Origin: Parcubacteria group bacterium
Lineage (GTDB): Bacteria > Patescibacteriota > Minisyncoccia > Minisyncoccales > UBA10102
Reading direction: 5' to 3'
Assembly (NCBI GenBank): GCA_016203945.1
Contig: JACQLT010000002.1
Coordinates: 73,585-137,584, forward strand
DNA: 64,000 bases
The notes below the pieces were generated by a model. That model ran no database searches and was not told the origin of the DNA. It saw only the letters and a program-made list of their open reading frames with translations. The translations under genes were made by a program, and so were the position numbers. Positions 34,815 to 63,859 of the stretch are shown here, piece after piece (positions within the stretch are counted from its first letter, which is position 1; the number at the start of each line of letters is the position of its first letter).

Positions 34815-35603
34815 TCAATCTCCACTCTTCGTGGAGCCAACCTTCAAAAGATATTCCAACGCCGTCTCGTACTCTCCTGCCTCGGAAGCCGCGACTGCTT
34901 TTGAGACCAGCGCTGCCTGCTCTTCATTGAGCGTCCGAGTTTCCAAATCTTTCAGCTCGCTCTCTACCACCACCCTAGTGGCTTCGGCCAAGCTGTCATT
35001 CTCCCCTTCCCCGATACTTGTTCCGAGCACCCGTTCCAGTTTAGATCTCTCTTTCTGAAGCTCCAGCAAAACTTTTCCCGCCTGGAGCGCGACTCGCGGC
35101 TCCTGATCAACCAGCCCTGGCAATGCCTGCGACACCTCAGAAACCCTGCTCTGGTATCCCTTGATTGCGGCCGCAAGATCCTTAGTTCGGTTCTGCGCAG
35201 TCACCTGCTTTAACTCATCTAATCTGCGCTGGGCAAGCTCCAGCTGCACGAACGCGCGATCTTTGCTCGGAGAAAGCGCGAACTCCACCTGTTCCCTAGT
35301 TGACTTTACGGAGTACAAAGGGTCTCCTGGCAAGCTGGAAGAAGAAATCTGCAGTGCGAGGCTTACTCCCACCACAAGCATGAGGCCTGCAAACGCAAAA
35401 GCCGGTTTCTCAAAGTATCTTGTTGCCAGCACTAACTCTCCCAGTATACGGGAGGCAAGAGACCCCTGCAATATCCTTGGTTCGACCAAGCTATTCACAC
35501 CTATCTGGCTCATCACCTGGCTTTTAACGGAAAAAACCCAGTCCTGTCTGGGTGTAATGCTCTTCAAAAGGTTTAGCTTCTCTATGGTCTGACGATGTTC
35601 CAT
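34815..35603 (-). CDS. DUF5667-like single-pass membrane protein, probable anti-sigma factor
   Basis: One TM (FAFAGLMLVVGVSLAL), coiled C-terminal region; immediately downstream of ECF sigma gene. Confidence 0.4.
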   Translation of the reverse strand: MEHRQTIEKLNLLKSITPRQDWVFSVKSQVMSQIGVNSLVEPRILQGSLASRILGELVLATRYFEKPAFAFAGLMLVVGVSLALQISSSSLPGDPLYSVKSTREQVEFALSPSKDRAFVQLELAQRRLDELKQVTAQNRTKDLAAAIKGYQSRVSEVSQALPGLVDQEPRVALQAGKVLLELQKERSKLERVLGTSIGEGENDSLAEATRVVVESELKDLETRTLNEEQAALVSKAVAASEAGEYETALEYLLKVGSTKSGD

Positions 35604-36805: not shown

Positions 36806-36835
36806 TTGACAAATATGTCTAACCTGTGGTATGGT
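36806..36835 (+). promoter_or_regulatory. sigma70-like promoter TTGACA-18-TATGGT with TGn extended -10
   Basis: ATTGACAAATATGTCTAACCTGTGGTATGGT. Confidence 0.4.
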
Positions 36836-36842
36836 TGTGTTA

Positions 36843-36990
36843 CAAACGGCTTAGCTCTTTAGACCACAAACCTGGAGACCGAGTGGTGACGGTTTCCAGT
36901 CCCAATGCCCCTGCTTGTGCGAGGTGACTCCAATGCGTCTTCCGTGTCGCCGCAAAAGAGTCTTTCCGCACAGCAGGGGCTCTTTTTTTC
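36843..36990 (+). ncRNA. candidate small RNA (promoter to U-run)
   Basis: Hairpin CTGGAGACCG/CGGTTTCCAG; long closing helix 36908-36921/36967-36979 followed by T7 run at 36983-36989; no conserved SRP/6S/RNase P motifs. Confidence 0.2.
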
Positions 36991-37007
36991 CCTTGACTTA
37001 GTCAAGG
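36991..37007. promoter_or_regulatory. 17-bp palindrome CCTTGACTTAGTCAAGG just upstream of the -35 of the MraZ-like gene
   Basis: Perfect 7-bp arms around TTA; operator-like. Confidence 0.3.
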
Positions 37008-37881: not shown

Positions 37882-37934
37882 CCCCTGCTGCGACAAGGCA
37901 CCCGCCAATGTCGCACCAGGGGGTTCTTTTTTTT
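37882..37934 (+). terminator. rho-independent terminator
   Basis: CCCCTGCTGCGACA ... TGTCGCACCAGGGG then GTTCTTTTTTTT. Confidence 0.55.
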
Positions 37935-37947
37935 CCCAGCGCTTCAT

Positions 37948-37992
37948 CCTTGGCCGAACCAAGGTGTGGATAACTAGGTTCGGCCAAGTTAT
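37948..37992. repeat. palindromic element with two inverted perfect DnaA-box 9-mers (TGTGGATAA / TTATCCACA) flanked by CCTTGG-N5-CCAAGG hairpin units
   Basis: CCTTGGCCGAACCAAGGTGTGGATAACTAGGTTCGGCCAAGTTATCCACAAGG; related copy at 52628-52668. Confidence 0.5.
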
Positions 37993-38045
37993 CCACAAGG
38001 GGCTATGTTGCGTCAATCTTTGAAGGGTTGGTAGAATGGAATGGT

Positions 38046-40082
38046 ATGAAGAAAAATTTAATGGTAGTAGGCATTGCGCTAACGCTTATCCTTGCAGGTG
38101 GAAGCGTTTTTTTGTGGCAAAGAAGCCAGGCTGATGTACGGGCGGTGAATAAAACACCCCCTATCGGCAATCAAATCGGTAGATTTACGGATATTCTAAA
38201 TAAATTAACTGTTCAAATCGATAATAAACTTGGAGCAACCGTCGCCACCACAACAAAACCAGAACAGACTCAGGAAGAAATAACCGAAGAACCCCCTACT
38301 GCTCAAGAAGATCAGCAGCAACCAGAAATTGCACAGTTGCCGCAAACCAATACGCCAGTAATTCCTCCACAGCCACAACCACAAGAAATTCTATTAGAGA
38401 CTACTCCTGCCATTGAAGAGATTGCGAAAACAGAGAAGACAAGTAAGGGACAAGAGGAGGAAATTGTTATAGAATCGAAACCTGATCGGCTCGCCTGCGC
38501 AATACAAACAAACACATTACCAAAACTTCAAAGTCTCGTGCTGAACGAGATTGCATGGATGGGTACTACAAACTCTGCAACTGATGAGTGGATAGAGCTT
38601 AAAAATATTGCACATCAAGAAATCGCGCTCGCAAACTGGCAGCTGCAAGACGAAGACGGCCAGATTCATTTCATTTTTCCCGATATAAAAATCCAGTCTC
38701 AAGCATTCTATTTGCTCGAACGCACAGATGACAGTACGCTTCCCGATATCACGGCAGATGCGGTCTATAAAGGCAGCTTGGGTAATACAAACGAAGCTCT
38801 CTATCTCTTTGACGCAGAGTGCCTGCTGCAAGACAGCGTAGAGGCAAGTCCCAATTGGCCAGCCGGAGACGCAGAGAAGAAAACTCCTATGGAACGAACA
38901 CTGGATTTGCAATGGCGAACTGCGCCCTCTTCAAGTCCCCGTGCGGAAAATACCCAATCATTCGGCCCAGGGGTCTTTTTTTCTTCAAGTGTTTCTGCTG
39001 GCGGAGGCGGGGGGAGCACATCTAATCCAGTCGTCTATCCAAAAATTCTCATTACAGAACTTCAGGCATCCCCTATTGGAGAACGCTTTATTGAACTCTA
39101 CAATCCAAACGAAACTTCTGTTGATCTTACCGATTGGTACGTCCAAAGAAGAACTGAAGGCGGATCTCTCGGTTCTTTTGTTTCTTCGCCCAATCTTGTT
39201 GGAAAAAGCATATCCGCAAAAAGCCACTTTTTTATCGCGCGGAGCACCTCGTCTTTCTCTAGTCAGGCAGACATCCTTTTAGATCTCACCATAACCGAAC
39301 ACAATACGTTCATTATAAAAAATCCTGCTGGCGAGATTGCAGACAAAGTTGGTGTTGGCCAAAACGCTCCAGAGTTTGAAGGATCCCCAGCTCAGTTTCC
39401 GCCGGAAAATCAGGGTTTGGCAAGAGAGTGGAATCTCTCAACGCAATCCTATGCTGACACAGAGAACGATGCCGAGGACTTTCTCGTCGCTTCTCCAACT
39501 CCAAAAGCACAAAACGCGCAATCTCCCTCAGAGTCCCCGCCGGAAGAACCGGGGCCCGAACCAGAACCAACTCCATCTCAACTCGTGGTATTCAATGAAA
39601 TCGCATGGATGGGCACTGGCGTAAGCGCAAACGATGAATGGATTGAACTTTTGAGCACCGTCACCAGTACAACAACCGATATGACTGGATGGAGGATCGT
39701 GGCGGAAGACGGCACGCCGAATATTGCGCTAAGCGATACTGTTAGTCCCCAAGGATACTACCTGTTAGAACGCACGGCTGATACTACCGTTTCAGATATT
39801 TCAGCGAATAAAATTTACACCGGAGCGCTCAGCAACCAGGGAGAACTGCTGCGTCTTTTTGATGCCCAAAATAATCTTATTGATGTAGTGGATGCTTCCG
39901 GCGGTTGGTTCGCGGGGGATAATACGACAAAACAAAGCATGGAACGGATAAACATTTCCGCATCGGGGTCCACTGCGACAAACTGGGCAAACAATAATCT
40001 TATGAGCGTGAATGGTAAAGCTGCGGACGACACAACGCAAATCAATGGTACGCCAGGCCAACAGAATAGCGTTTCTAACTAA
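38046..40082 (+). CDS. membrane-anchored protein with three lamin-tail-domain (LTD) repeats
   Basis: N-terminal TM (MKKNLMVVGIALTLILAGG). Three blocks: NEIAWMGT..DEWIELKN, IELYNPNETSVDLTDWYV, NEIAWMGTGVSANDEWIELL. P/Q/E-rich linkers. ORF track start 38028. Confidence 0.7.
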   Translation: MKKNLMVVGIALTLILAGGSVFLWQRSQADVRAVNKTPPIGNQIGRFTDILNKLTVQIDNKLGATVATTTKPEQTQEEITEEPPTAQEDQQQPEIAQLPQTNTPVIPPQPQPQEILLETTPAIEEIAKTEKTSKGQEEEIVIESKPDRLACAIQTNTLPKLQSLVLNEIAWMGTTNSATDEWIELKNIAHQEIALANWQLQDEDGQIHFIFPDIKIQSQAFYLLERTDDSTLPDITADAVYKGSLGNTNEALYLFDAECLLQDSVEASPNWPAGDAEKKTPMERTLDLQWRTAPSSSPRAENTQSFGPGVFFSSSVSAGGGGGSTSNPVVYPKILITELQASPIGERFIELYNPNETSVDLTDWYVQRRTEGGSLGSFVSSPNLVGKSISAKSHFFIARSTSSFSSQADILLDLTITEHNTFIIKNPAGEIADKVGVGQNAPEFEGSPAQFPPENQGLAREWNLSTQSYADTENDAEDFLVASPTPKAQNAQSPSESPPEEPGPEPEPTPSQLVVFNEIAWMGTGVSANDEWIELLSTVTSTTTDMTGWRIVAEDGTPNIALSDTVSPQGYYLLERTADTTVSDISANKIYTGALSNQGELLRLFDAQNNLIDVVDASGGWFAGDNTTKQSMERINISASGSTATNWANNNLMSVNGKAADDTTQINGTPGQQNSVSN

Positions 40083-40085
40083 GCG

Positions 40086-42908
40086 TCATCGGAACTTCTT
40101 GAGCCACTGGCCGGTGTAGCTCTTCTTGCTTTTCATAATATCCTGAGGGGTCCCTTCTGCGACAATCCTTCCCCCGCGATCTCCCCCGTCGGGCCCAAGA
40201 TCTATGACCCAGTCAGAGCTCAAAATTACATCCAGGTTGTGTTCAATCACCACAACCGTGTTTCCCTTTGCCACCAGCTCCTTGAGCACATGAAGAAGTT
40301 TCTTCACGTCGTCAAAGTGCAGCCCCGTGGTGGGCTCGTCTAAGATATATAGCGTTCTGCCGGTGGCGCGCTTCGCAAGTTCGGTAGCAAGCTTTACCCG
40401 CTGAGCCTCTCCTCCAGAAAGAGAAGGGGCAGGCTGGCCAACTTCAATATATCCTAGTCCTACGTCGTTGAGCGTCTTGAGTTTCTGGGTAAGCACCGGG
40501 ATGTTCTTGAAGAATTCGAGCGCTTCTTCTACGGTGAGGCGCAGGGCATCAGAAATATTCTTTCCCTTGTACTCAATCTCCAACACCTCCCTGTTGTATC
40601 GCTTGCCCTGGCATTCTTCGCATTCAACATAGACGTCGGGCAGAAAATACATTTCAATCTTCTTTAATCCTTGGCCTTCGCACGATTCGCACCTTCCTCC
40701 TTTTACGTTGAATGAGAAACGGCCCGCTTCGTATCCCCTGATCTTGGATTCTTTGGTTTTGGCGAACAGGTCGCGAATGGTGTTGAAGGCTCCGGTATAG
40801 GTTGCGGGGTTGGAACGCGGAGTTCTGCCTATTGGCGACTGGTCAATAAGCACCACTTTGTTGAGAAGCTTTGTGCCCTCTATCTTGTCATGGGCTCCGG
40901 GATCCTCTTTTGCGCGGTAGAACTTCTTGAGCAAAGATTTTGCGAGAATATCGTTTACGAGCGTGCTCTTCCCAGACCCCGATACTCCGGTCACGCATAC
41001 GAACCTCTCAAGCGGGATGCGAACATCAACATTTTTTAGGTTGTGCTCTTTTGCTCCTTTGATAACCAGAAATTGAGGTTTCTTGTTCTTGAAATCTGCA
41101 GAGAGAATATATACCCTCTTCTTTCCCACAAGATATTCTCCGGTAAGGGTTTTTGCCCTGAGAAGCTGGGAGGACGTGCCTGCGAATATAATTTTGCCCC
41201 CGTGTTTTCCAGCTCCAGGTCCTACGTCTATAACCCAGTCAGCAGCCTTAATGGTTTGGGAATCGTGTTCCACCACCAGCACGCTATTTCCTATATCTCT
41301 TAGCTGTTTGAGTGTTGTGATGAGCCGGGCTTGGTCTCGCGCATGCAAGCCAATTGAGGGCTCATCTAAGATGTAGAGCACCCCGGTGAGTTTTGAGCCG
41401 ATCTGCGTTGCCAGCCGGATGCGCTGTTCCTCTCCTCCGGAAAGCGTGCCCGCCTTTCTGGAAAGGGTGAGATATTCCAGGCCAACGTCCACGAGGAACT
41501 GCAAGCGGTTCTTGATTTCCTTCACGATAGGGAGCGCGATCGATTTCTCCTGGCTGGATAGTTGAGAAGAAAGAACGCTTGAAAACGCGCTCGCTTTCTC
41601 AATACTAAACTGCACCACGTCATCTATAGATTTCCCAGCTACGTGAACGCTCAGAACTTCCGGCTTTAAGCGTTTCCCCTTGCAGGTCTCGCAGACACGC
41701 TCCACCATGTACTGCTCAATCTCTTCTCTCGCGTAATCAGAATCGGTCTCGTGATACCTGCGCTGAAGCCAGGGGATGACGCCTTCAAATTCATCGTCTC
41801 CCTGAAATACAAGATCTATGACTTTTTTGGGCAGATCTTTTACCGGAGCTGTAAGAGAAAACTTTTCTTGCTTGGCCAATTCCTCCAGCTTCCACCAGAA
41901 GAATCCCTGCCTTCCGATTTTATGAGAAGCATGCGCCCAGGGAAAAATAGCCCCCTCTGCAACAGAAAGGCGCGGATTGGGAATGACGAGGCTGGGATCA
42001 ACCTCTAGCTTTTCTCCCAGGCCCTGGCAGGAAGGACAGGCGCCGTATGGGCTGTTGAAAGAGAACATGCGAGGCTCTATTTCGGGAAGATTGATGCCGC
42101 AGGATTCGCAGGCGAATCGCTCCGAGAACACCATATCTGCCATTCCCTGCCCGCCCGCAACGCTTCGCGTAGCGAGGCGGGCGGGCTGAGCCACCACAAC
42201 AACTCCTTTTCCGAGACGCAGAGCGGTTTCAACCGAATCTGCCAGACGCGACCGGTCCAAATCCTTATCAATGACTAAACGATCCACCACTACGTCAATG
42301 GCGTGCTTCTTTTTCCGGTCAAGCTTTTTCTCCAGCGCCTCTTCAATGCGCCATACAATGCCGTCTATGCGAACCCTCACGAACCCGCCGCGCTGGATTT
42401 CTTCCAGCACCCCCCGGTGTTCGCCTTTCCGATCCCGCACTATAGGACCCAAGATCATGATTTCTTTTCCGGGCTGCAGACGGCTGAGATGCTCTGCGAT
42501 CTGGCTAGGGCTTTGGCGCAGCACCCGCTTTCCGCACCTGGGACAATGCGGAACTCCGATTCTTGCAAACAGCAATCTGAGATAGTCGTAGATTTCGGTG
42601 ATGGTGCCGACAGTAGAACGCGGATTGTGGCTGCTTTTTCTCTGGTCAATGGCGATGGCAGGGCTGATGCCGTCTATACGATCCACATCGGGCTTATCCA
42701 TGACGCCCAAGAACTGGCGCGCGTATGCGGACAATGACTCAACATACCTGCGCTGGCCTTCTGCATAGAGCGTGTCAAACGCGAGCGAACTTTTTCCAGA
42801 ACCCGAAAGTCCGGTAATCACCACGAGCTTGCGTTTGGGAATGTCCACGTCAACATTTTTGAGATTGTGGACACGCGCCCCGCGGATTTGAATAAGATCT
42901 TTTGACAT
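40086..42908 (-). CDS. uvrA: excinuclease ABC subunit A
   Basis: 940 aa, two ABC ATPase cassettes ([14 protein letters not shown]; [14 protein letters not shown]), zinc-finger CxxC pairs. Confidence 0.95.
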
Positions 42909-42966
42909 ACAGGTTCATAGTATATACCAATGTCAAAACAAAGAAAAGGGCGGGCAACCCTTGTTA

Positions 42967-42994
42967 TTGAAAGAAATTGTATGTATGGTATACT
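42967..42994 (+). promoter_or_regulatory. sigma70-like promoter TTGAAA-16-TATACT (extended TGn)
   Basis: TTGAAAGAAATTGTATGTATGGTATACT. Confidence 0.4.
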
Positions 42995-43042
42995 GTATCT
43001 GCAGAACAACGAAACAGCACATTGAGTTGAGGAGGAGAACAT

Positions 43043-43138
43043 ATGTGGCAACGGTTCTCTGCTCTAGACAAATTGTTCTTCGGGGTCCTCGTTATTGGTG
43101 TCTTAATAACGGCAGGACTCAAGATTCCCCTTCCATGA
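43043..43138 (+). CDS. candidate 31-aa hydrophobic small protein
   Basis: GAGGAGGAG SD 5-7 nt before ATG; MWQRFSALDKLFFGVLVIGVLITAGLKIPLP; followed by hairpin plus T-run at about 43147-43182; not in ORF track (below size cutoff). Confidence 0.3.
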   Translation: MWQRFSALDKLFFGVLVIGVLITAGLKIPLP

Positions 43139-43287
43139 ATCTAGAACCCTTTCTTGCTCGCGCAGGAAAAGGGTTCTTTTTTACAACTTGATTCTTTGAC
43201 TTAGTTAAGGATAAGGTGGGGGCAGATATATGAACCATCCCTCACTGCGTTCGGGAGAACCATATAGTTCTCGCTAACGCTCAAACT

Positions 43288-44646
43288 ATGAAGTTTAAAT
43301 ATACAAAGAAAACTGGAATTGGGAAGATTCCGCGAGAAGCCGGGGTTTATTCATTTTGGAGCAAAATAGGCCTGCTCTATATAGGAAAGGCGGCGAACCT
43401 GCGCAGCAGGATAAAAAACCACTTCAAAGTACCCTCCTACAGAGATAACCTGTTCATGGACCAGGTACAGAAAATAGGGTACCTGGAAACCGGCTCTGAA
43501 ATTGAAGCCCTTCTACTGGAGTCCCGGCTCATCAAACACCACCAGCCCAAGTACAACGTCATGTGGCGGGACGACAAGAATTATTTCTATGTCGCCATTA
43601 CCAAAGAGGATCTGCCAAAGGTTTTTCTTACCCACCAACCAAGAAAGGCGCTTGCCTCCGCTTCGTCCGCCAAACCTGCCTGGCCGGCAGGCAGGCCCAC
43701 GGCCTTACCCGAACTTCGCTTCGGCAAGCGCCTTCATGTGAATTACATTGGCCCGTTTACCGAGGGCAAGCCGATTAAGCTGGTCTTAAGAAGCTTACGA
43801 GAGATCTTTCCTTACTATACGTCCAGAAACCATTCGAAAACTCTGTGCCAATATTGCCATCTGGGCCTGTGCCCCGGCCCCGCTCCCGATACAAAGCAGT
43901 ATCGCAAAAACATTCGCAATCTTGTTGCCGTATTGCAAGGCAAAGAAACTTCGGTCTTAAATAATCTAAAAAAAGAAATGCACTTGGCTTCACAGCGCGA
44001 ACAGTACGAAAAAGCGGCCAATCTGCGAAATCAAGTCCAGGCGCTGGAAGCCGTATTTTCGCACTCTTTTCTCTTTTCTCGAGCACCGCACGAAAAACAA
44101 GGGAGGAATTATGCATCTCTGGAACCAGAGCTGCGAGCTATTCTTGGCAGCACAAAAAAAATCGCGCGTATGGAAGCATACGACATCTCCAACATACAGG
44201 GGAAAGAAACAACGGGATCCATGGTCGTATTCGTGAAGGGCCGCCCCGACAAGAATGAATACCGGAAATTCAAGATTCGCCTTGACGGCAAGCCGAATGA
44301 CTTTGCCATGATGGAGGAACTCGTCTTTCGCCGTCTTGCGCATGCGGAATGGCCCGCCCCAGATTTCATGCTCATTGACGGGGGCAAGGGCCAACTCACT
44401 GCTGCACTGAATGCGGCAAAATCCCTGCCTCGCCGGCAGGCAGGCGAAATTCAAAATCCAAAATTCAAAATCGGGGCTCTTGCCAAGCGCAACAACGAGC
44501 TATTTCTTCCAGGAAAGAAGAGCCCCCTACTTTTATCTGACATGTCTTTTGGGTTGCGGAACATACTCTTGCATATCAGAGACGAGGCGCACCGCTTTGC
44601 CATCTCCTATCATCGGAAGCTCCATAGAAAAAGCTCTCTGGGCTAG
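43288..44646 (+). CDS. uvrC: excinuclease ABC subunit C (short form)
   Basis: GIY-YIG (GVYSFWSKIGLLYIGKAANLRSRIKNHF), UvrBC and RNase H-like endonuclease regions; 452 aa, C-terminal (HhH)2 apparently absent. Confidence 0.8.
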   Translation: MKFKYTKKTGIGKIPREAGVYSFWSKIGLLYIGKAANLRSRIKNHFKVPSYRDNLFMDQVQKIGYLETGSEIEALLLESRLIKHHQPKYNVMWRDDKNYFYVAITKEDLPKVFLTHQPRKALASASSAKPAWPAGRPTALPELRFGKRLHVNYIGPFTEGKPIKLVLRSLREIFPYYTSRNHSKTLCQYCHLGLCPGPAPDTKQYRKNIRNLVAVLQGKETSVLNNLKKEMHLASQREQYEKAANLRNQVQALEAVFSHSFLFSRAPHEKQGRNYASLEPELRAILGSTKKIARMEAYDISNIQGKETTGSMVVFVKGRPDKNEYRKFKIRLDGKPNDFAMMEELVFRRLAHAEWPAPDFMLIDGGKGQLTAALNAAKSLPRRQAGEIQNPKFKIGALAKRNNELFLPGKKSPLLLSDMSFGLRNILLHIRDEAHRFAISYHRKLHRKSSLG

Positions 44647-44701
44647 CCATGAGCGAAGTCGAAGGGTTGACGCAGGAAAAAATAGAGGGTATTATGGACG
44701 C

Positions 44702-45046
44702 ATGCTCCAACGAGCAATATTGCAGACCGCAGGGGCCTTTGCAGGACTATGGTTGGCCTCGCGCTTCCTGGAAAACGTCTCGTTTACCGGGTCTGTCCTC
44801 GTCCTTGGGCAGGCGGCCCTCGTACTCGGAGTGGCAAACGCCTTTCTTAAGCCCATTTTGAACCTTTTGACATTACCCGTACGCATACTCACGCTGGGAC
44901 TTTCCAGTCTCTTGATTAACGTGGCGTTCGTGTGGCTATTGGATATTATATTCCCCGAACTCATCATCGGCAGTATTATTGCGCTCTTAGAAACAACGGT
45001 TGTCGTGTGGATATTTTCCACCATTCTGTCTGTAGCGAAAAAATGA
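44702..45046 (+). CDS. YvlD-type phage-holin-family (superfamily IV) membrane protein
   Basis: LVLGVANAFLKPILNLLTLPVRILTLGLSSLLINVAFVWLL signature; ORF track start 44411 overlaps uvrC so internal Met used. Confidence 0.55.
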   Translation: MLQRAILQTAGAFAGLWLASRFLENVSFTGSVLVLGQAALVLGVANAFLKPILNLLTLPVRILTLGLSSLLINVAFVWLLDIIFPELIIGSIIALLETTVVVWIFSTILSVAKK

Positions 45047-45267
45047 ATATCGATAATCTTCTTACCATAGCTGAAGTTCTGATCGCCGCGTGCGCCATCG
45101 TATTGATTTTGCTTCAGCAGCGGGGCACTGCTCTGGGATCTGCCTTTGGCGGCGGAGAAGGAACTTCGTACGCCACACGAAGAGGCGTTCAGAAATATCT
45201 TTTGTGGGGCACCATCGTTTGTCTTGCATTGTTCGTCGGACTCGCGCTCGTGAGCGTCGCGATCTGA
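45043..45267 (+). CDS. secG: preprotein translocase subunit SecG
   Basis: MNIDNLLTIAEVLIAACAIVLILLQQRGTALGSAFGGGEG; ATGA overlap with upstream gene. Confidence 0.7.
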   Translation: MNIDNLLTIAEVLIAACAIVLILLQQRGTALGSAFGGGEGTSYATRRGVQKYLLWGTIVCLALFVGLALVSVAI

Positions 45268-45283
45268 TATTAACGTTCCCTTC

Positions 45284-47242
45284 ATGCAACTTCCCTCGCT
45301 TATTCATTGGAAAGAATTCCCACGGATTCTCTCCAGAAAAGAAAAATTGGTTTTCGTATTGCTGGCGGCGATATTTCTGATCTCGTCATTCACCCTCTGG
45401 CGTATGTTTCTCGACAGGTTCACAGAGGTGGTTCCGGCTTCGGGAGGAACGATCGTGGAGGGCGTGGTGGGATTCCCCAGGTTTATCAACCCTCTCTATG
45501 CGGATACCAGGGACGCCGACCGCGACCTTACAGAGCTCGTGTTTTCCGGCCTCTTCACGTACGACTCGACGGGAAGGTTCATTCCCGACCTTGCCCAGAA
45601 CTATCAGGTGCTTGAGGACGGAAAAACCGTTGAGATACAGCTGAAAGAAGACGCGTTCTGGCATGACGGAAAACCTTTTAGGGCAGACGACGTCATGTTC
45701 ACGGTGCGGACCCTTCAGAATCCTAGCGTCAAGAGCCCGGTGCGGGCGAACTGGGCAGGTGTCCAGGTGGAAAAGATTTCTGACCTGAGGGTGCGATTTA
45801 CGCTCAGAGAACCGTATGCCGCCTTTATGGAAAAGCTCACTCTAAAAATCATCCCCGCGCACATCTGGCAAGAGGTTCCAGTGGAACAGATCGCCCTTTC
45901 CCCGCTCAACCTTAAGCCAATCGGCACGGGACCTTACCGCGTGGAGAAAACAATCCAGGATAGGTCTGGGCTGGTGGAAGAAATACGCCTTAAGGCATTT
46001 TCCAAGTACATCAACAAGCAGCCATTCATCTCTTCTCTAACGTTTAAGTTCTTTGAGAACGAGGAGAAGATGCTCTCAGCTGCCCGGAGCGGCCAGATTG
46101 AAAGCTTCCCTGTGTCGTCCCCCAATGCGGCAAAATATGCGGGACTTGGAGAACGCGTGGAGCAATTCTCCCTGCCCCGTGCCTTCAGCATATTCTTCAA
46201 TCTCGCCTCCCCGGAGCAAACATTCCAGGCGCGAGGCGTGAGGCAGGCGCTTGCGCTTGCCATAGACCGAGAAAAGCTCGCGCAAACCCTTGCCCCAGAC
46301 GCCAAGGCAGCATTTTCTCCACTGCTTCCCGAGTTCTTTGGATTTGATTCTCCTGCTCTTGCGGCGCCCGACAAAACAGGAGCTCTCGCCCTTCTCAAGC
46401 AAGCTGGGTTCCGAGAACTTGACGGAAAGCTCACCAAGCCGGAAAAAGAAAGAGGCACATTCCGCTCTGATCTCAAGCGAGGAAGCCAGAACCAGGAGGT
46501 GAAACTTTTACAGCAATGCCTTGCCGATCAGCCTGGAATCTATCCTTTGGGGACGGTAAACGGCGTGTTCGGACCCTCTACGCAACAGGCGGTCATCCGA
46601 TTCCAAGAAACGTACGCTCAGGAAATCTTGGCTCCCTCGGGCCTTACCAAAGGAAACGGACAGGTGAAAGCCGGGACGCGCGCAAAGCTCAACGAAATCT
46701 GCTTTCCTCAAACCGGAGACGATTCATTCAGCATTACTCTTACCACGGTAGCCCAGCCGACCCTTCAGAAAGTGGCAGAATTCGTACAGGGGGAATGGCA
46801 GCAGCTCGGCATACAGGTCTACATCAACGCGGTGTCTCCAGAAGACATGGCAATGAACATCATCAAGCCGAGGAACTACGAGGCGCTCTTGTTCGGAGAA
46901 GCCCTGGGCATCGTACCAGATCCCCTGCCCTTCTGGCATTCTTCTCAGGTCGTAGATCCCGGCCTAAACATAGCCGGCTACGAAAACAAGCAGGCAGACG
47001 CCTTGCTGGAAAAGATCAGGAAGGAAACGGACACGACAAAGCGCAATGCGTTCATGAAACAGCTCCAGGACATATTGCTCGCGGACATGCCCGCCGTGGC
47101 CTTGTATGACTTGAGCTACTCATACGTGGTGCCCGACCGCCTCAAAGGCATTGAGGGGTACAAGATAGCGGATCCTTCCCAACGCTTTGCGAATGTGGGA
47201 GAGTGGTATATAAAGACAGGGAGAAAATGGAAATTCTTTTAA
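45284..47242 (+). CDS. family 5 extracellular solute-binding protein (peptide-type ABC transporter SBP) with inserted peptidoglycan-binding domain
   Basis: SBP_bac_5 layout with N-terminal anchor; insert LLQQCLADQPGIYPLGTVNGVFGPSTQQAVIRFQETYA matches PG_binding_1. Confidence 0.7.
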   Translation: MQLPSLIHWKEFPRILSRKEKLVFVLLAAIFLISSFTLWRMFLDRFTEVVPASGGTIVEGVVGFPRFINPLYADTRDADRDLTELVFSGLFTYDSTGRFIPDLAQNYQVLEDGKTVEIQLKEDAFWHDGKPFRADDVMFTVRTLQNPSVKSPVRANWAGVQVEKISDLRVRFTLREPYAAFMEKLTLKIIPAHIWQEVPVEQIALSPLNLKPIGTGPYRVEKTIQDRSGLVEEIRLKAFSKYINKQPFISSLTFKFFENEEKMLSAARSGQIESFPVSSPNAAKYAGLGERVEQFSLPRAFSIFFNLASPEQTFQARGVRQALALAIDREKLAQTLAPDAKAAFSPLLPEFFGFDSPALAAPDKTGALALLKQAGFRELDGKLTKPEKERGTFRSDLKRGSQNQEVKLLQQCLADQPGIYPLGTVNGVFGPSTQQAVIRFQETYAQEILAPSGLTKGNGQVKAGTRAKLNEICFPQTGDDSFSITLTTVAQPTLQKVAEFVQGEWQQLGIQVYINAVSPEDMAMNIIKPRNYEALLFGEALGIVPDPLPFWHSSQVVDPGLNIAGYENKQADALLEKIRKETDTTKRNAFMKQLQDILLADMPAVALYDLSYSYVVPDRLKGIEGYKIADPSQRFANVGEWYIKTGRKWKFF

Positions 47243-47258
47243 TTAATCATCAAACTTT

Positions 47259-47345
47259 GGGCGAGTGGCGAAACTGGCAGACGCGCTAGCTTCAGGAGCT
47301 AGTGACCGCAAGGTCGTGGAGGTTCAAATCCTCTCTCGCCCACCA
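47259..47345 (+). tRNA. tRNA-Leu (anticodon CAG)
   Basis: 7-bp acceptor GGGCGAG/CTCGCCC, anticodon loop TTCAGGA, long variable arm, TPsiC GGTTCAAATCC, encoded CCA. Confidence 0.85.
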
Positions 47346-47360
47346 CTGCATCATACAACT

Positions 47361-49043
47361 ATGATCACAACAAAATCTCAGCAGCAGCTGCGCATCATCC
47401 CTCTTGGGGGGCTGGGCGAAGTCGGTCGCAACATGATGCTCATTGAATGGCAGGAGGAAATCCTGATTATTGACATGGGCTTCCGCATGCCAGAAGAAGA
47501 CATGCCGGGCATTGACTATATCATTCCCAACATCTCATACCTCAAGGGAAAAGAGAAGAAGATCCTGGGACTGCTGGTCACGCACGGCCACTACGATCAC
47601 ATGGGAGCCATTCCGTATTTCATCGGAAAACTCGGCAACCCCCCGATTTACGCGGGAGGCATGGCCAAGGCCATTATCCTCAGACGCCAGGAAGACTTCC
47701 CAAACCAGCCCAAGCTCCACATCATTGACGTGAAAGACGGGAGCAGATTCTCCATAGGAAGCTTTTCCGTGGAAGCGTTCCGTCAGAACCATAACATCAC
47801 AGACAACTACGGATACGTCATTACTACTCCGATTGGAAATATCGTGCATACATCTGATTTTAAGTTCGACTCAAGCCCGGTGAACGATCCTCCGAGCGAT
47901 TTTGAAAAACTGCGAGATATCGGAGACCGGAAAATATTGCTTTTGATGTCCGATTCTACGAACGCGGAAGAACCCAACCACTCTCTTTCAGAAAAGAAAA
48001 TCATGGAAAACTTAGATGAACTTATAAAGAATGCAAAGGGCCGCATCATTACGGCAACCTTTGCCTCTTTACTGAACCGAATTCAGCAAATCATCACGCT
48101 CTCTGAACAATACGGAAGAAAGGTGAGCCCCGAAGGATTCTCTATGAAAACAAACATTGAGATATCAAAACAGCTTGGCTATCTGAAAGCCCGCAAGGGA
48201 ACCATCCTCTCCACAAGAGAAGTGCTGAAATATCCCGATTCCAAAATCACCATTTTAGCCACCGGGGCTCAGGGAGAAGAACGCGCGGTGCTTATGCGCA
48301 TCGTGAACCGAGAACATCCCCTTCTGAAAATCCAGAGGGGAGATACGGTTATCTTTTCTTCTTCTGTCATTCCGGGCAATGAACGCACCGTGCAGTATGT
48401 AAAAGACAACTTGTACCGCCAGGGAGCTAACGTATTCAACTACAAAATGCTTGACATTCATGCTTCCGGCCACGCCAATCAAGACGAATTAAAAGAAATG
48501 ATAGAGCTCATGCGGCCTAAATTCCTCTTGCCCGTGCACGGACAGTTTTCCATGCTGGTAAACCACGCCAAACTTGCCGCCTCGTCCGGCATTCCGGAAA
48601 AAAACATAGTGGTCATGGAGAATGGACAAATCCTCAATGTTTCCAAAACCGGAATTTCCGTAGAAAAGAAAACGGTACCTGCCAACTACATCATGGTGGA
48701 TGGCCTCGGGGTCGGAGACGTGGGAGAGGTGGTGCTCCGCGACCGCCAGAGCCTGGCGAAAGACGGCATGTTCGTTCTCATCGTGGTCGTGGACCGGCAG
48801 ACAGGACGCGTCAAAGGCTCTCCCGACATCATTTCTCGCGGCTTCATCTATCTGCGGGAATCCGGAGATCTTCTGCACCAGGTGCGCAGGCGAGTCGTTG
48901 AGATCGTGAACCAGTCCGCAGGGAGCGGAGGAGCCATAAACTGGATATATGTGCGGGACAACGTGAAAAATAAGGTGGGAGAATTTCTCTTTACCAAGAC
49001 CCAGCGAAGACCCATGGTATTGCCCGTTATAATCGAAGTATAG
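47361..49043 (+). CDS. rnj: ribonuclease J (beta-CASP metallo-beta-lactamase RNase)
   Basis: LRIIPLGGLGEVGRNM, HxHxDH motif THGHYDHMGAIPY; ORF-track start 47265 lies inside the tRNA so ATG 47361 used. Confidence 0.85.
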   Translation: MITTKSQQQLRIIPLGGLGEVGRNMMLIEWQEEILIIDMGFRMPEEDMPGIDYIIPNISYLKGKEKKILGLLVTHGHYDHMGAIPYFIGKLGNPPIYAGGMAKAIILRRQEDFPNQPKLHIIDVKDGSRFSIGSFSVEAFRQNHNITDNYGYVITTPIGNIVHTSDFKFDSSPVNDPPSDFEKLRDIGDRKILLLMSDSTNAEEPNHSLSEKKIMENLDELIKNAKGRIITATFASLLNRIQQIITLSEQYGRKVSPEGFSMKTNIEISKQLGYLKARKGTILSTREVLKYPDSKITILATGAQGEERAVLMRIVNREHPLLKIQRGDTVIFSSSVIPGNERTVQYVKDNLYRQGANVFNYKMLDIHASGHANQDELKEMIELMRPKFLLPVHGQFSMLVNHAKLAASSGIPEKNIVVMENGQILNVSKTGISVEKKTVPANYIMVDGLGVGDVGEVVLRDRQSLAKDGMFVLIVVVDRQTGRVKGSPDIISRGFIYLRESGDLLHQVRRRVVEIVNQSAGSGGAINWIYVRDNVKNKVGEFLFTKTQRRPMVLPVIIEV

Positions 49044-49047
49044 CTGT

Positions 49048-50031
49048 ATGAGAATCGTAAGCGGCATTCAGCCAACAGGAAAATATCATATTGGAAACTA
49101 TTTGGGAGCGATCAGGCATTGGATCAAACTCCAAGAAGAACATGAGTGCTTCTTTTTCGTTGCCGACCTGCACGCGATCACCCTTCCTCAAGATCCGGAA
49201 GAACTCAAAAAAGCCACGCTTCAAAAAATCATTGAGCTCGTGGCGTTGGGACTCAGTACCGAACGCTGCTGCCTGTTCGTGCAGTCGCACATCCAGGAAG
49301 CCCCCGAGCTTGCCTGGATATTCAGCACCATCACTCCCATAGGGGAACTGGAGCGCATGACCCAGTACAAAGACAAGAAGAACAAGACAAAAGATTCTGC
49401 CAACGCGGGGCTCTTTCTCTACCCGACTCTCATGGCTGCAGACATTCTTTTGTACAAGGCAGAGGGAGTCCCTGTAGGACAAGATCAGCTCCAGCACCTT
49501 GAGCTCACGCGGGAAACCGCAAGAAGGTTCAACAAGCGCTTCGGAGAGACGTTCCTCATTCCAAAAGCAATGGTTCCCGAGTTGGGGGCAAAAATCCTTT
49601 CGCTCACGGACCCGAAGAGGAAAATGTCCAAGTCAGACCCTCTGGATTCCCAGATCCTGCTTTTGGATGAGCCCGACGCCATCCGCAAAAAGATATTCCG
49701 GGCGGTTACCGACCGCGGCACCGTGGTTTCGTACGATCCCGCTAAAAAACCCGGAATATCAAACCTTCTCACCGTCTACTCGCTCTTTGCCGAAATATCC
49801 GTCAAAGAGGTGGAGCGAAAATTCGCAAAGAAGGGATACGCCGTCTTCAAGAAAGCCCTCGCTGATCTCCTGGTACGCAAGCTAGAACCCTTCAGAAGAA
49901 AATACGCAGAGCTCGCCTCTCGCGACGTCTATGTCCAAGAAATCATCAAACAAGGCGCAAAACGCGCCAGCTCCGTGGCGCAAGACACCATGGAAGAGGT
50001 GCGGGGCAAGGTGGGATTCTTGCAGGTTTAG
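49048..50031 (+). CDS. trpS: tryptophan--tRNA ligase
   Basis: HIGH variant YHIGNY, KMSKS. Confidence 0.9.
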   Translation: MRIVSGIQPTGKYHIGNYLGAIRHWIKLQEEHECFFFVADLHAITLPQDPEELKKATLQKIIELVALGLSTERCCLFVQSHIQEAPELAWIFSTITPIGELERMTQYKDKKNKTKDSANAGLFLYPTLMAADILLYKAEGVPVGQDQLQHLELTRETARRFNKRFGETFLIPKAMVPELGAKILSLTDPKRKMSKSDPLDSQILLLDEPDAIRKKIFRAVTDRGTVVSYDPAKKPGISNLLTVYSLFAEISVKEVERKFAKKGYAVFKKALADLLVRKLEPFRRKYAELASRDVYVQEIIKQGAKRASSVAQDTMEEVRGKVGFLQV

Positions 50032-50032
50032 C

Positions 50033-51517
50033 TCACACCCAGCCGAGTTTGCCGGTCAAGGTCACGACTTCGAAGCGGTTGAGCTTGTCCTGGATCTGGG
50101 GGAATTTTTCCAGCTCATCGGCAAGGATATTCTTTACTTTGAGCACCTCTTCTTTTGAAGCCCCCTCTACTCGCACGGTGAGATAGGGCGAGGTGTTGGA
50201 TGCCCGGACAATGCCCCACGCCTTTTCCGTTACCTGAATTCGCACTCCATCAATGAGCACGGCTGGATACTGCTTCTTTAAGTCTTCTGTAATCTGCTGC
50301 ACGACTTCAAACTTGTCCTCGTCTTTGCATGGCAGCTTTATCTCGGGCGTCCTCACCCGCTGCGGAATATCCTTAAACATTGAGGAGAATGGGCCCGTCT
50401 GACGAGAAAAGAGCTCAAGCATCTTGCCTGCTGCGAATACTCCGTCATCAATCTTGAAGTAGTCCTCCACGAAGAAAAAGTGGCCCGACGCCTCTCCGCC
50501 AAAGATAACATCTGGATCCTTGCGCAGGGTCTCCTTGATGGGAGCGTGTCCTGTCCTGTGCATCATGGGTATTCCCCCGTAGTGAGGGATGAGCTCTTCT
50601 AAAAGCTGGGAGCACTTGGTGTCATACAATATCTTCTTTCCCGGGTGCCTTGAAAGCGCGTCTTTCGCAAAGAGCAAAAGCGGCAGGTCGGCTGAGATAA
50701 ACTTGCCTTGTTCGTCCACGAAGCCCATCCGATCCCCGTCTGCATCAAAGGCGATGCCGAGGTCAGCCTTCTCTTCCACAACCTTCTTTCCAAGGGCTAC
50801 CATGTTCTGCGGCCCTTCCGGGTCAGGATCATGATTCGGAAAGGTAGCGTCTGGCTCGGCATACATTGAGATAACCTCGCATCCGAGCTTCTCAAAGAGG
50901 CCTGGGACAAAGATGCCGGCGCTTCCGTTGCCAGTATCTATAACAATGCGAAGCTTCCGGGAAAGCCTGATGTGCTCTAAAAAGTACTTCTCGTATACAG
51001 GGAACATCTCTGTTGTCTCAAGCTGCCCCATGGGCTGGCTTTCGTAGTCCTCTTGCTCAATCATCTTTCTCATCTCCTGCAACTCCTCGCCGAAAAGCGG
51101 CCAGACGCCCTTCTTCATGAATTTAAAGCCATTGTAAAAATAGACGTTGTGGCTGCCCGTAACGTTCACGCCCCCGTCAAACCCCAGGAACGCGGTTGCA
51201 AAGTAGATGATAGGGGTAAGGGCAATCCCGGCATCAACAATGTCGCATCCGGTGGAGCGTATGCCAGAAACAAACATATCCTTGAGCTCCTTTCCAGAAG
51301 GCCTCACCTCATACCCGACCACCACCCTCTTCCCCTCGGCTCTCCGGATCATCGTGCCGTACGCTTTTCCTATCTCAAGGACTGCATCCTGGGTGAGCGT
51401 AATGCCGGGAAATGGACCGTACCATTTTTCGTACTTGGCGATTTCCTCTTTTGAGAATGAGATGCCTGCTATCCCCCGAATATCGTATTCCCGAAATATT
51501 GATGAGGCCAGTTGCAT
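50033..51517 (-). CDS. phosphoglucomutase/phosphomannomutase family protein
   Basis: Active-site serine loop TGSHN, four-domain PGM/PMM layout. Confidence 0.85.
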   Translation of the reverse strand: MQLASSIFREYDIRGIAGISFSKEEIAKYEKWYGPFPGITLTQDAVLEIGKAYGTMIRRAEGKRVVVGYEVRPSGKELKDMFVSGIRSTGCDIVDAGIALTPIIYFATAFLGFDGGVNVTGSHNVYFYNGFKFMKKGVWPLFGEELQEMRKMIEQEDYESQPMGQLETTEMFPVYEKYFLEHIRLSRKLRIVIDTGNGSAGIFVPGLFEKLGCEVISMYAEPDATFPNHDPDPEGPQNMVALGKKVVEEKADLGIAFDADGDRMGFVDEQGKFISADLPLLLFAKDALSRHPGKKILYDTKCSQLLEELIPHYGGIPMMHRTGHAPIKETLRKDPDVIFGGEASGHFFFVEDYFKIDDGVFAAGKMLELFSRQTGPFSSMFKDIPQRVRTPEIKLPCKDEDKFEVVQQITEDLKKQYPAVLIDGVRIQVTEKAWGIVRASNTSPYLTVRVEGASKEEVLKVKNILADELEKFPQIQDKLNRFEVVTLTGKLGWV

Positions 51518-51546
51518 ACTTCACTATTATATACTAAGATATCCTC

Positions 51547-51963
51547 ATGCCAAATTACGAATGGACACTTCTTCTGGATCCCGTACTTGAAGAAAAGCAG
51601 GCCAGGCAACAGGTTGCCTCGGCAGCCTCTCTTGTGCAGGAAGGCGGAGGCATAGTGCAGTCGCAAGAAGTATTAGGAAAGCGCCCCCTGCCAAGCACCA
51701 TACGGAAACACAGGGAAGTCAATCTTGCCCGTATTGAGGCAACGATTGCCCAGGATCGCGTAGAAGCCGTGGCAAAGAAGCTTGACGAAATACCCGCAAT
51801 CCTCCGCATCATGCTGACCATAAAAAGGCGCCGCGCGCCCATGCCCCCACGAAGACAGCTGCACCGGAGCGTGTTGAAAACGCCCGTGCAAGCCAAGGAA
51901 AAAATGGATGTCCGGGAGATTGACAAGAAGATTGAAGAACTCCTCCAAGAACCTCAAATATGA
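51547..51963 (+). CDS. rpsF: 30S ribosomal protein S6 with basic C-terminal extension
   Basis: S6-like N-terminus (YEWTLLLDP), position ahead of ssb-rpsR. Confidence 0.65.
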   Translation: MPNYEWTLLLDPVLEEKQARQQVASAASLVQEGGGIVQSQEVLGKRPLPSTIRKHREVNLARIEATIAQDRVEAVAKKLDEIPAILRIMLTIKRRRAPMPPRRQLHRSVLKTPVQAKEKMDVREIDKKIEELLQEPQI

Positions 51964-52409
51964 ATCTCAACAAAATATTTCTTATCGGAAACTTAACCGC
52001 GGATCCAGAATTGCGAACTACGACTTCCGGACAAAAAGTCTGCACGATGCGCATGGCCACGAACCGAACGTGGAAAAATCAGGCCGGCCAGAAGCAAGAG
52101 AAAGCGGAGTTTCACAGCGTCATCTTGTGGGGAAGGCTTGCTGAAATAGCCAGCCAGTACCTCAAAAAGGGAAATATGGCGTACGTGGAAGGACGCATTG
52201 AGACGCGAAGCTGGGACGACCAGCAAAGCGGCCAGAAAAAATACCGCACCGAGATCATAGCAGAGCGCCTTCAGCTCGGCCCCAAAGGGCAACACTCACA
52301 CGAAGGAGAGGACCTTCGCGCCTCCCCTCCCAAGGAAACTCCTGCAGCCGAGGAAATCCCCATCATTGAAGAAGACGAAGATATCGACGTAAAAGACATA
52401 CCCTTCTAA
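51960..52409 (+). CDS. ssb: single-stranded DNA-binding protein
   Basis: OB-fold N-terminus MNLNKIFLIGNLTADPELR, acidic tail ending DIPF. Confidence 0.85.
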   Translation: MNLNKIFLIGNLTADPELRTTTSGQKVCTMRMATNRTWKNQAGQKQEKAEFHSVILWGRLAEIASQYLKKGNMAYVEGRIETRSWDDQQSGQKKYRTEIIAERLQLGPKGQHSHEGEDLRASPPKETPAAEEIPIIEEDEDIDVKDIPF

Positions 52410-52414
52410 CTACT

Positions 52415-52612
52415 ATGGATTGCTCACTCTGCAAGAAAAACATCCAGGACGTGGATTTTAAGGACACAATCGCGCTCAAGCGCTTTATTTCCGGTCTTGG
52501 AAAAATCCGAGGGCGGAAGCGAACCGGCCTGTGTGCATCCCACCAGCGCCAGGTGGGACGCGCAATCAAAAGAGCGAGGCATCTCGGCCTGCTCTCTGCC
52601 ACATCCAAATAA
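52415..52612 (+). CDS. rpsR: 30S ribosomal protein S18
   Basis: 65 aa, FKDTIALKRFIS and RHLGLL motifs. Confidence 0.8.
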   Translation: MDCSLCKKNIQDVDFKDTIALKRFISGLGKIRGRKRTGLCASHQRQVGRAIKRARHLGLLSATSK

Positions 52613-52627
52613 CCCCTCTATTCACAT

Positions 52628-52700
52628 CCTTGGTTCGGCCAAGTTATCCACACCTTGGCCGAACCAAGGATTTCCAAGGATTTTTGCCAAGGATTTTTGG
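52628..52700. repeat. second copy of hairpin/DnaA-box element plus CCAAGGATTT(TTG) tandem repeat x3
   Basis: CCTTGGTTCGGCCAAGTTATCCACACCTTGGCCGAACCAAGG then ATTTCCAAGGATTTTTGCCAAGGATTTTTGG; between convergent rpsR and the inactive HtrA-like gene. Confidence 0.5.
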
Positions 52701-53420
52701 TTAGAGACCCAAGAAGTTGCGCAAGAACAAAGCCGGAATCACCGTGACGCTTCCTGAAGAACTGATCGCGGCAATGCCTGCCACGCGGCCTTCCACCGTG
52801 AAGACCGCGGCTCCAGTCGAAGCCGCCGTCTCTGTTATCGTGCTCTGAATCAGATCTCCCGCGACAGAACGCACCACTCCTTCATTCACGATTATTCCTG
52901 CGGTACTTTGCGCTATCAACACAAGTTTCATCCCGGGATTTAACTCTCCTTCATTAACGAACCCGGCCGTGGGCAGATTGTTCTTTTCCACCTTCAGGAG
53001 AACAAGATTGCTTGCCGCATCACGCTTCAACACCTGAGCGGGAATGGTCTCCTGGTTTTGATCAAGCGACACCGAAACTCCAAAACCAGGGGGCGTCAAT
53101 GAAGCCCGGGTCAAGATCAAGCCGTCTGAAGTTACGATAAGCCCGGAACCCTTTCTCCCAGCTCCGCTCTGCACCAATACCACGGTCTTGCCAGACTTTT
53201 CTACGGTCTTCTCTAGGGCTGCTGGCTCCTCAACAGAAATCTGAGAAACAGGCTGTACAAGAACCGTGCGCGCGTTCCAGTCCTGGATGAACTTCAAGTC
53301 CTGGAATGCGGGCGAAGACGCGAGATATGGCAACAGGAACGCCTGCGCCCAAATTCCTCCCGCAGCCCCCAGAACAAACATAGAGACAATCAAAAAGATG
53401 CGTTGTATCATGCAATTCAC
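52701..53420 (-). CDS. HtrA-like protease-fold protein with all three catalytic residues substituted (predicted inactive), no PDZ
   Basis: Aligns to htrA at 56159-57493: [19 protein letters not shown] (His to Ser), NLVLLKVE (Asp to Asn), [10 protein letters not shown] (Ser to Thr in GNSGGP position); N-terminal TM/signal. Confidence 0.55.
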
Positions 53421-63697: not shown

Positions 63698-63859
63698 ACC
63701 GCATTACCGCTAAAACCTAGCTCGCCAAGCAGCATCGGAGAAACACCAAAGGGGGTGTCAGCAATATGCTGGCACCCCCTCTTCATTTTTTATAACAACC
63801 TCTCCGGTTCCTCCTTGTTCCTTGTCCCGGACAAGGAAATGAGGACAAGGAGATGGTGG

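Follow-up and report, generated by a model that had tools for sequence, protein, structure and literature searches.

The intergenic DNA just upstream of a gene for a lamin-tail-domain (LTD) protein in this Parcubacteria genome contains two perfect DnaA boxes, inverted and set among short palindromes, and the question is what such boxes do there. The initial annotation had seen no dnaA or dnaN gene nearby, and this held for the approximately 45 open reading frames (ORFs) checked in the window, by which we mean the whole 64,000-nt stretch of DNA analysed here: a DnaA, DnaN or transposase domain was found in none of them by Pfam scan or from the protein name given by the source. To our knowledge, neither the control of replication initiation nor REP-like repeats have been described for candidate-phyla-radiation (CPR) bacteria, whose genomes are close to 1 Mb in size and among which there is no cultivated model. 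The explanation that we favour, and to which we give roughly an even chance, is that the DnaA-box elements of this window are low-copy, clade-specific intergenic mosaic repeats of a Wildermuthbacteria-related Parcubacteria lineage, in which the 9-mer would have been kept as a putative DnaA site outside the origin.

The element at the LTD gene, here called E1, reads ATCC-TTGGCCGAACCAAGG-TGTGGATAA-CT-AGGTTCGGCCAAG-TTATCCACA-AGG, and on re-reading the transcription first given for it proved to be exact to the letter. Its parts and closest neighbours, with positions in the window, are the following.

37882–37935, + strand: G+C-rich long hairpin followed by a T8 run, 3′ of a 119-aa ORF; E1 begins 11 nt further on.
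37946–38009, no strand: element E1 including flanks (core 37946–38000), in the order hairpin-box-hairpin-box.
37941–37949 and 38002–38009: flanks GCTTCATCC and GCTATGTT, common with a second element of a relative (L018b, see below) and read directly from both sequences.
37948–37964, no strand: palindromic module 1, CCTTGGCCGAACCAAGG, with a 6-bp stem and a 5-nt loop.
37965–37973, − strand: first DnaA-box 9-mer, perfect, reading TGTGGATAA on the + strand.
37974–37988, no strand: module 2, CTAGGTTCGGCCAAG.
37989–37997, + strand: second DnaA-box 9-mer, perfect, TTATCCACA.
38046–40082, + strand: gene for the LTD protein, with its ATG 49 nt past the second box.

The two perfect inverted 9-mers had thus been correctly recognised, but the gap between them is 15 nt (24 nt centre to centre) and not 8 nt, and the end proposed for the element, 37992, cuts the second box; E1 reaches at least to 38000, and its shared flank to 38009. 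Of the two hairpin units with 6-bp stems that had been described, the first is indeed perfect, whereas the second (CTAGG..CCAAG) is imperfect alone and instead pairs with the first, positions 37977–37988 being perfectly complementary to 37949–37960 over 12 bp. Two mutually exclusive folds of E1 are predicted, one with the 12-bp arm-arm pairing and the first box in the loop, and the other with an 11-bp box-box pairing (including flanking bases) together with a local 6-bp hairpin; the box-box stem would form in single-stranded DNA or RNA, and the single-stranded DNA fold was seen on both strands. The hairpin with its T8 run at 37882–37935 probably acts as intrinsic terminator for the 119-aa ORF 5′ of it. 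Both boxes lie 49–81 nt 5′ of the LTD start codon, in agreement with the placement of the element just upstream of that gene, and a promoter scan detected no sigma-70-like promoter at E1.

A related copy had been noted at 52628–52668, and was found there with somewhat wider bounds, between two convergent genes.

52415–52612, + strand: rpsR (S18), last gene of the rpsF-ssb-rpsR operon, with its stop codon 14 nt before E2.
52626–52671, no strand: element E2, an inverted repeat of 18 bp without mismatch (ATCCTTGGTTCGGCCAAG / CTTGGCCGAACCAAGGAT) around the 10-nt loop TTATCCACAC.
52644–52652, + strand: DnaA-box 9-mer, perfect, in the loop or linker of E2.
52670–52700, + strand: T-rich tail after E2, with two extra half-arm copies, reaching the stop codon of the next gene.
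52701–53420, − strand: gene for a Trypsin_2-domain peptidase, convergent with rpsR.

In an alternative fold, E2 forms two local 17-nt hairpins on either side of the box. Its second module is identical to module 1 of E1 (17/17), and the two elements are inverted copies of each other, with 33 nt at 82% identity and, by our own reading, 30 consecutive identical bases. The tail after E2 reads CCAAGG-ATTT-CCAAGG-ATTTTTG-CCAAGG-ATTTTTGG, with the half-arm reiterated in tandem. A consensus terminator scan did not call E2, its loop exceeding 8 nt and its T-run being short; most likely, however, the 3′ module or the whole 18-bp hairpin, together with the T-rich tract, terminates the rpsF-ssb-rpsR transcript. 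Some Logan contigs from the same population (L011 at its end, L013 at its start) are interrupted exactly within E2 and where E1 begins, which is consistent with assembly-graph breaks at repeated or palindromic sequence.

Perfect TTATCCACA 9-mers occur three times in the window against 0.26 expected, a number reached by 1 of 100 shuffles, and all three are inside E1 or E2, while boxes with one mismatch are at background (10 versus 9.3 expected). The palindromes are enriched too: the 17-mer palindrome with up to three mismatches was found five times in the window (0.27 expected), the exact palindrome CCTTG-N7-CAAGG four times, each time in intergenic DNA (about 0.1 expected by our own arithmetic), and the latter, with one mismatch allowed, nine times (2.97 expected from shuffles). 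Three further copies in the window deserve description.

35473–35502, + strand: E3, a degenerate half-element, ATCCTTGGTTCGACCAAG-CTATTCACA-CCT, identical at 27 of 30 positions to the left half of E2.
36991–37007, no strand: solitary boxless module, CCTTGACTTAGTCAAGG, with the same sequence as one arm of the junction element at rpsR in the relative L024.
63820–63836, no strand: solitary boxless module, CCTTGTCCCGGACAAGG, followed by a half-arm repeat, GGACAAGG (63837–63851).

E3, in which CTATTCACA is a decayed box, lies within the coding sequence of a DUF5667 (anti-sigma-like) protein (34815–35603, − strand), in frame and encoding GVNSLVEPRI. An in-frame insertion of the Rickettsia palindromic element type was rejected, as the DUF5667 orthologue of the relative L023 aligns through the segment without a gap; E3 may possibly have come from gene conversion of coding sequence by an element. 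The half-arm reiterations after E2 and after the module at 63820 suggest slippage or partial duplication at the hairpins. Taken over all copies, the building block is a 15–17-nt palindrome, CCTWR-N(5-7)-YWAGG, often lengthened to ATCC...GGAT, which occurs alone or as a pair around TTATCCACA, and every module starts with CCT. The source genome has 6–7 such modules in the 64 kb of the window. E1, L018b and the solitary modules are all found 3′ of strong terminators.

The relatives are contigs that encode either a protein of the ClpB cluster to which that of the window belongs (identity of 90% or more; L007, L017 and L018) or an S18 protein 78–88% identical to that of the window (L021, L022 and L024–26); sampled as they were through the rpsR junction, they document conservation at that one site. 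The nearest named S18 relatives of the window are Wildermuthbacteria. The rpsR/Trypsin_2 junction was obtained from five further lineages, with rpsR DNA 76–90% identical, and four of these five carry the arrangement hairpin-TTATCCACA-hairpin at the junction.

L017/L018: ATCCTAGACTCGGTCTAGG-TGTGGATAA-CTAGACCGAGTCTAGGAT, with the box inverted relative to rpsR.
L021: ATCCTTAACCTGGTTTAG-TTATCCACA-GCTAAACCAGGTTTAG.
L022: CCTAGCCCAGGGCTAG-TTATCCACA-ACTAAGCGAGACTTAGGAT.
L024–26: CCTTGACTTAGTTAAG-TTATCCACA-CCTTGACTAAGTCAAGGAT.
L007: ATCCCTGGCTTCTGCCAGGGAT followed by TTTT, a single boxless hairpin.

The L007 junction is a plain terminator hairpin with the foot ATCC...GGAT, and the box is lost at this orthologous site. 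A T-rich tract of 3–4 T follows the 3′ module in all six lineages, the single hairpin of L007 included. In an ungapped alignment of six distinct elements from five lineages the 9-mer is invariant and the arms are variable, which, together with the inverted box of L017/L018, indicates purifying selection on the 9-mer in either orientation; the only other invariant columns are the palindrome feet, CT...AG and CT...AG, and one flanking T. Read as two local hairpins, the six sequences show pairing in 92% of cells, and both partners have changed in 7 of 13 pairs; read as one long hairpin, they show pairing in 87%, both partners having changed in 11 of 18 pairs. In slid controls the paired share is 9–53%. 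This covariation could be the result of replacement by other family members and not of selection on structure. The arms of the L022 element are unrelated to one another, yet each is a local hairpin, and the constant feature is therefore the local modules and not the long hairpin. Between L021 and L022 the flanking genes are 96.5–97.9% identical and the element is 71% identical with the box intact; to judge from this comparison, turnover is far quicker in the arms than in the DNA around them, and the box stays unchanged. The element at the rpsR junction is ancestral and not a recent insertion.

Besides its junction element, L018 has a second one, L018b, located 5′ of a gene for an HtrA-like peptidase and reading ATCCTAAACCTGGTTTAG-TTTTCCACA-TGGTTTAG-TTTTCCACA. 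Its two boxes are direct and 17 nt apart from centre to centre, those of E1 being inverted at 24 nt, and a MAFFT alignment of the two elements was out of register; both follow a terminator and precede a gene. The arm of L018b is that of L021. Since identical modules thus occur at non-orthologous sites and in different genomes, the arms must either move between sites or be homogenised by gene conversion, as in REP families, and on the sequence comparisons made here the elements are a low-copy dispersed repeat family evolving in concert. The earlier proposal of a REP/MITE-like family that happens to contain the DnaA motif was therefore right with regard to the dispersed repeat, its modules being common to non-orthologous sites and genomes, but not with regard to the motif being there by accident, as the 9-mer is the only invariant part. 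The elements were also neither scattered over dozens of random sites nor absent from relatives, two outcomes that the initial annotation had named as refuting its reading: they are low-copy in the DNA covered and present at the orthologous site in close relatives.

Neither an element nor a perfect box was found in 19 kb of the close relative L027, in 17 kb of L023 or in 32 kb of Wildermuthbacteria contigs. With the box lost in L007, and no element in the 19 kb of L027 or in the approximately 50 kb of more distant relatives, any function is therefore dispensable or clade-restricted. Approximately 90 kb of the relatives' DNA outside the elements contained one perfect box, in a different context in L007. 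There (GCA_030651535.1, 8330–8730) a tRNA-like sequence 3′ of a phosphoglucomutase gene is followed by a perfect TTATCCACA, with a promoter close to consensus (TTGACA...TATACT) beside it and several small ORFs in a row (54–90 aa), none of which the window has; possibly, an element has integrated here at a tRNA gene. A scan of GTDB representatives and JGI metagenomes with the window-specific 21-mer GGTTCGRCCAAGYTATYCACA gave only high-G+C contigs (L001–L006), free of the palindromes and judged to be chance or unrelated matches. Four of them (L002, L004, L005 and L006, from a JGI peat metagenome) are homologous to each other and have GGTTCGACCAAGTTATCCACAC in common within a conserved non-palindromic stretch, which seems to have nothing to do with the elements described here. 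IMG/VR, scanned with the core pattern, gave no hits, BLAST gave no match for E1 among plasmids or for E2 among phages, and Rfam gave no family at gathering thresholds over the whole window, nor a meaningful one at E ≤ 1 for the two regions, where the hits were generic hairpin matches to miRNA models (16–34 bits versus thresholds of 52–149).

Gene order indicates that the two copies in the window may have recombined with each other. In L023 the genes GT2, HtrA, ClpB, Trypsin_2, LTD, HTH, sigma and DUF5667 follow one another on one strand, and by tblastn this order (L023 9334–14321) fits that of the window only if the 14.7-kb block from E1 to E2 (37946–52671), whose outermost genes are LTD and rpsR, is inverted. 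This fits an inversion of the block by recombination between the inverted copies E1 and E2, as we infer from one distant outgroup. GC skew is negative throughout the block. L018b is likewise found at a synteny break, and the 3′ end of rpsR is a breakpoint in Wildermuthbacteria too, where recA follows. The genes of the block are mostly on the + strand, including rpsF-ssb-rpsR and those for RNase J and a class-I (Trp/Tyr-type) tRNA synthetase, and those of its flanks mostly on the − strand.

What kept the 9-mer unchanged in arms that vary so freely would, in the explanation that we favour, be the binding of DnaA to it as double-stranded DNA. DnaA is the most economical candidate because the motif is asymmetric and invariant and has survived inversion relative to the flanking genes; a monomeric binder acting independently of orientation would suit an asymmetric motif that outlived such a flip. 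A DnaA-titrating or regulatory site is therefore our best reading of the conserved 9-mer, inferred as it is from conservation. Its copies would be high-affinity DnaA sites outside the origin, serving either as a titration sink or as local regulatory or road-block sites, and E1, close to the start of the LTD gene, would be one candidate for the latter. The palindromic modules would act as hairpins, supplying termination at E2 as well as the means of spread, with spread and homogenisation proceeding through gene conversion or recombination between copies. Some points speak against this: most copies have a single box, extrusion of the long hairpin would leave that box single-stranded, a form that domain IV of DnaA does not bind, and some relatives, as seen above, lack the box or the element.

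The closest known architecture is that of BIME-1 (RIB/RIP) in E. coli, in which a REP and an inverted REP stand on either side of an L linker with a binding site for IHF, and which shows that the linker between paired REPs can serve to bind a protein (PMC3333891); the present elements resemble it with a DnaA box replacing the IHF site. In both cases two short extragenic palindromes in alternating orientation surround a short linker with an asymmetric protein site (DnaA binding being putative here), the location is at gene 3′ ends and between convergent genes, solitary palindromes are found as well, and there is an association with termination and rearrangements (PMC3333891). E2 and the junction elements of L017, L021 and L024 are indeed built of two opposite-loop modules around a 9–10-nt linker, as BIMEs are, and the modules are short extragenic stem-loop palindromes, at 15–17 nt slightly short of the 20–40 nt of REPs, with all perfect copies intergenic.

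Such features could also belong to a REP/REPIN-like or miniature IS200/IS605-derived mobile element, in which the 9-mer, perhaps with the ATCC/CCT foot, would be the site of the element's own single-stranded DNA enzyme, for example a RAYT-type Y1 transposase, and the identity with a DnaA box would be coincidental. We regard this, the main rival, as rather unlikely, even if much of the behaviour of the family is in line with it: the foot of its hairpin modules is constant and the stem specific to each genome, as in REPs, its arms are homogeneous within a genome and different between genomes, identical modules occupy non-orthologous sites, presence and absence vary among relatives, the elements are found at synteny breakpoints, and E. 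coli TnpA-REP cleaves between CC and T beside REP hairpins (PMC3333891), just as the modules here begin with CCT. A 9/9 match to the near-universal DnaA-box consensus is, however, an unlikely coincidence, there are solitary modules lacking the 9-mer, no Y1 or other transposase was found in the approximately 45 window ORFs checked, and the element at the rpsR junction is not a recent insertion. REPs are furthermore defined by a 5′ GTAG and a stem mismatch recognised by TnpA-REP (PMC3333891), whereas the GTAG tetranucleotide is absent here, the modules starting with ATCC/CCT and having mostly perfect stems. Copy density is also low in the DNA covered. REPs are typified by about 100 or more copies per genome; the count here is 6–7 modules in the 64 kb of the window and none in the 19 kb of L027. 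Further differences from BIME-1 are that the linker is the DnaA-box consensus, that the modules are shorter (17 nt) and perfect instead of mismatched, that a RAYT gene was not seen among the window ORFs checked, that the stems differ among close genomes and, in L022, even between the arms of one element, and that the host is an uncultivated CPR bacterium. A MITE in the strict sense, with terminal inverted repeats and a target-site duplication over some 100–500 bp, was not recognised either, the elements being 45–65 nt long with no duplicated flank at E1, E2 or L018b. If the family is bound by DnaA, the BIME principle would extend from IHF in enterobacteria to the replication initiator, and the 46-nt element, short enough to be synthesised, would be a concrete target for initiator binding away from the origin in CPR bacteria; if the 9-mer instead serves a repeat-specific enzyme, this would be a new REP-like system. 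With either reading, the family is of use for marking synteny breakpoints in these genomes.

DnaA sites outside the origin have precedents in datA and DARS1/2 of E. coli, in the DnaA-box clusters of B. subtilis and in the initiator-titration model; the role ascribed to such sites is to sequester or modulate DnaA. The present elements have in common with them consensus DnaA boxes, here of predicted high affinity, in intergenic DNA away from oriC. Those loci, however, each group 3–5 or more boxes at defined distances, in some cases along with an IHF site, and lie outside palindromic repeats, whereas here 1–2 boxes per site are found within hairpin modules, with neither spacing nor orientation conserved. 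A more far-reaching reading, which we think improbable, would be that a DnaA box presented on extrudable palindromes is a dedicated DnaA system outside the origin, with its inverted copies doubling as recombination substrates that reshuffle the chromosome. The elements could then be titration or reactivation sites timing initiation in a minimal genome or, in the case of E1, hairpins resembling A sites for helicase loading outside oriC. The A site of the ABC-primosome, a plasmid/phage-vector priming signal, is a hairpin of single-stranded DNA whose stem contains a duplex DnaA box (PMC6127211). E1 as single-stranded DNA is predicted to pair its inverted boxes into an 11-bp stem, and hence to have a duplex DnaA box on a hairpin in the same manner, unlike the E2-type copies, which hold the box in a loop or between hairpins.

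The elements might instead act at the RNA level only, as terminators or mRNA-stabilising stem-loops, with single-stranded UUAUCCACA or its complement recognised by an RNA-binding protein, an RNase or an sRNA. They do resemble intrinsic terminators in being G+C-rich stem-loops just past stop codons followed by T-rich tracts, E2 stands 14 nt past the rpsR stop codon where L007 has its plain terminator hairpin, stem covariation is a classic signature of RNA structure, and strong terminators precede E1, L018b and the solitary modules. They differ from such terminators in having identical sequence repeated at unrelated sites, an invariant 9-mer and T-tracts that are short, E2 not being called by the terminator scan. 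What makes this reading quite unlikely in our view is that the 9-mer is inverted relative to rpsR in L017/L018, so that the transcript sequence differs, and that E1 has both box orientations; Rfam moreover gave no match beyond the generic hairpin hits far below thresholds.

That E1 is a DnaA-controlled operator for the promoter of the LTD gene, with E2 as an unrelated by-product, is suggested by the position of its two perfect boxes 5′ of the LTD start codon and by the homologous double-box element L018b, also found 5′ of a gene, where the common flank GCTATGTT could be a −10-like hexamer. This we nevertheless consider very unlikely. The boxes of E1 and L018b are unlike in spacing and orientation, the best-conserved copies are between convergent genes, and a distant LTD relative in L023 has no upstream box, the best hits among LTD homologues being 40–48% identical. 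The regulation of an LTD promoter by DnaA, as first proposed, is not supported as a general function, with most copies at a convergent junction and no sigma-70-like promoter detected at E1. A chromosomal replication origin or an origin-associated repeat, also proposed initially and with the perfect DnaA boxes as its sole support, is effectively refuted, since GC skew runs monotonically and stays negative over the whole 64 kb and neither dnaA nor dnaN is among the window ORFs checked, with at most two boxes per site, no AT-rich unwinding region and a distance of 14.7 kb between E1 and E2 adding to this.

Some other identities were tried and rejected. A dif/Xer site was considered for GGTGTGGATAA, which we take to resemble the XerC arm of E. 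coli dif, and was rejected because a XerD arm and a 6-bp spacer are both missing. A DNA-uptake sequence was rejected with only three copies in 64 kb, and an origin of the loop TTCGG from a tRNA T-arm was rejected as the arms of the relatives lack it.

Two further regions of the window are described here in their own right. Between the genes for an HTH_DeoR-like and an MraZ/AbrB-like protein lies a region (36806–36988, + strand) that looks to encode an unannotated, structured small RNA of approximately 145 nt. It gave no match in Rfam even at E ≤ 1; a promoter-like TTGACA-18-TATGGT with an upstream TG (36806–36835) stands ahead of it, and its predicted fold (−57.5 kcal/mol, z = −4.06) includes two strong hairpins, with a U-run after the second. 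A large nonulosonic-acid/glycan biosynthesis cluster, notable for a small CPR genome, occupies positions 866–26523 on the − strand, with two NeuB genes and genes for a CMP-sugar cytidylyltransferase, DegT-type aminotransferases, epimerases and methyltransferases, and is followed by two Wzy_C/TPR O-antigen-ligase-like genes on the + strand.
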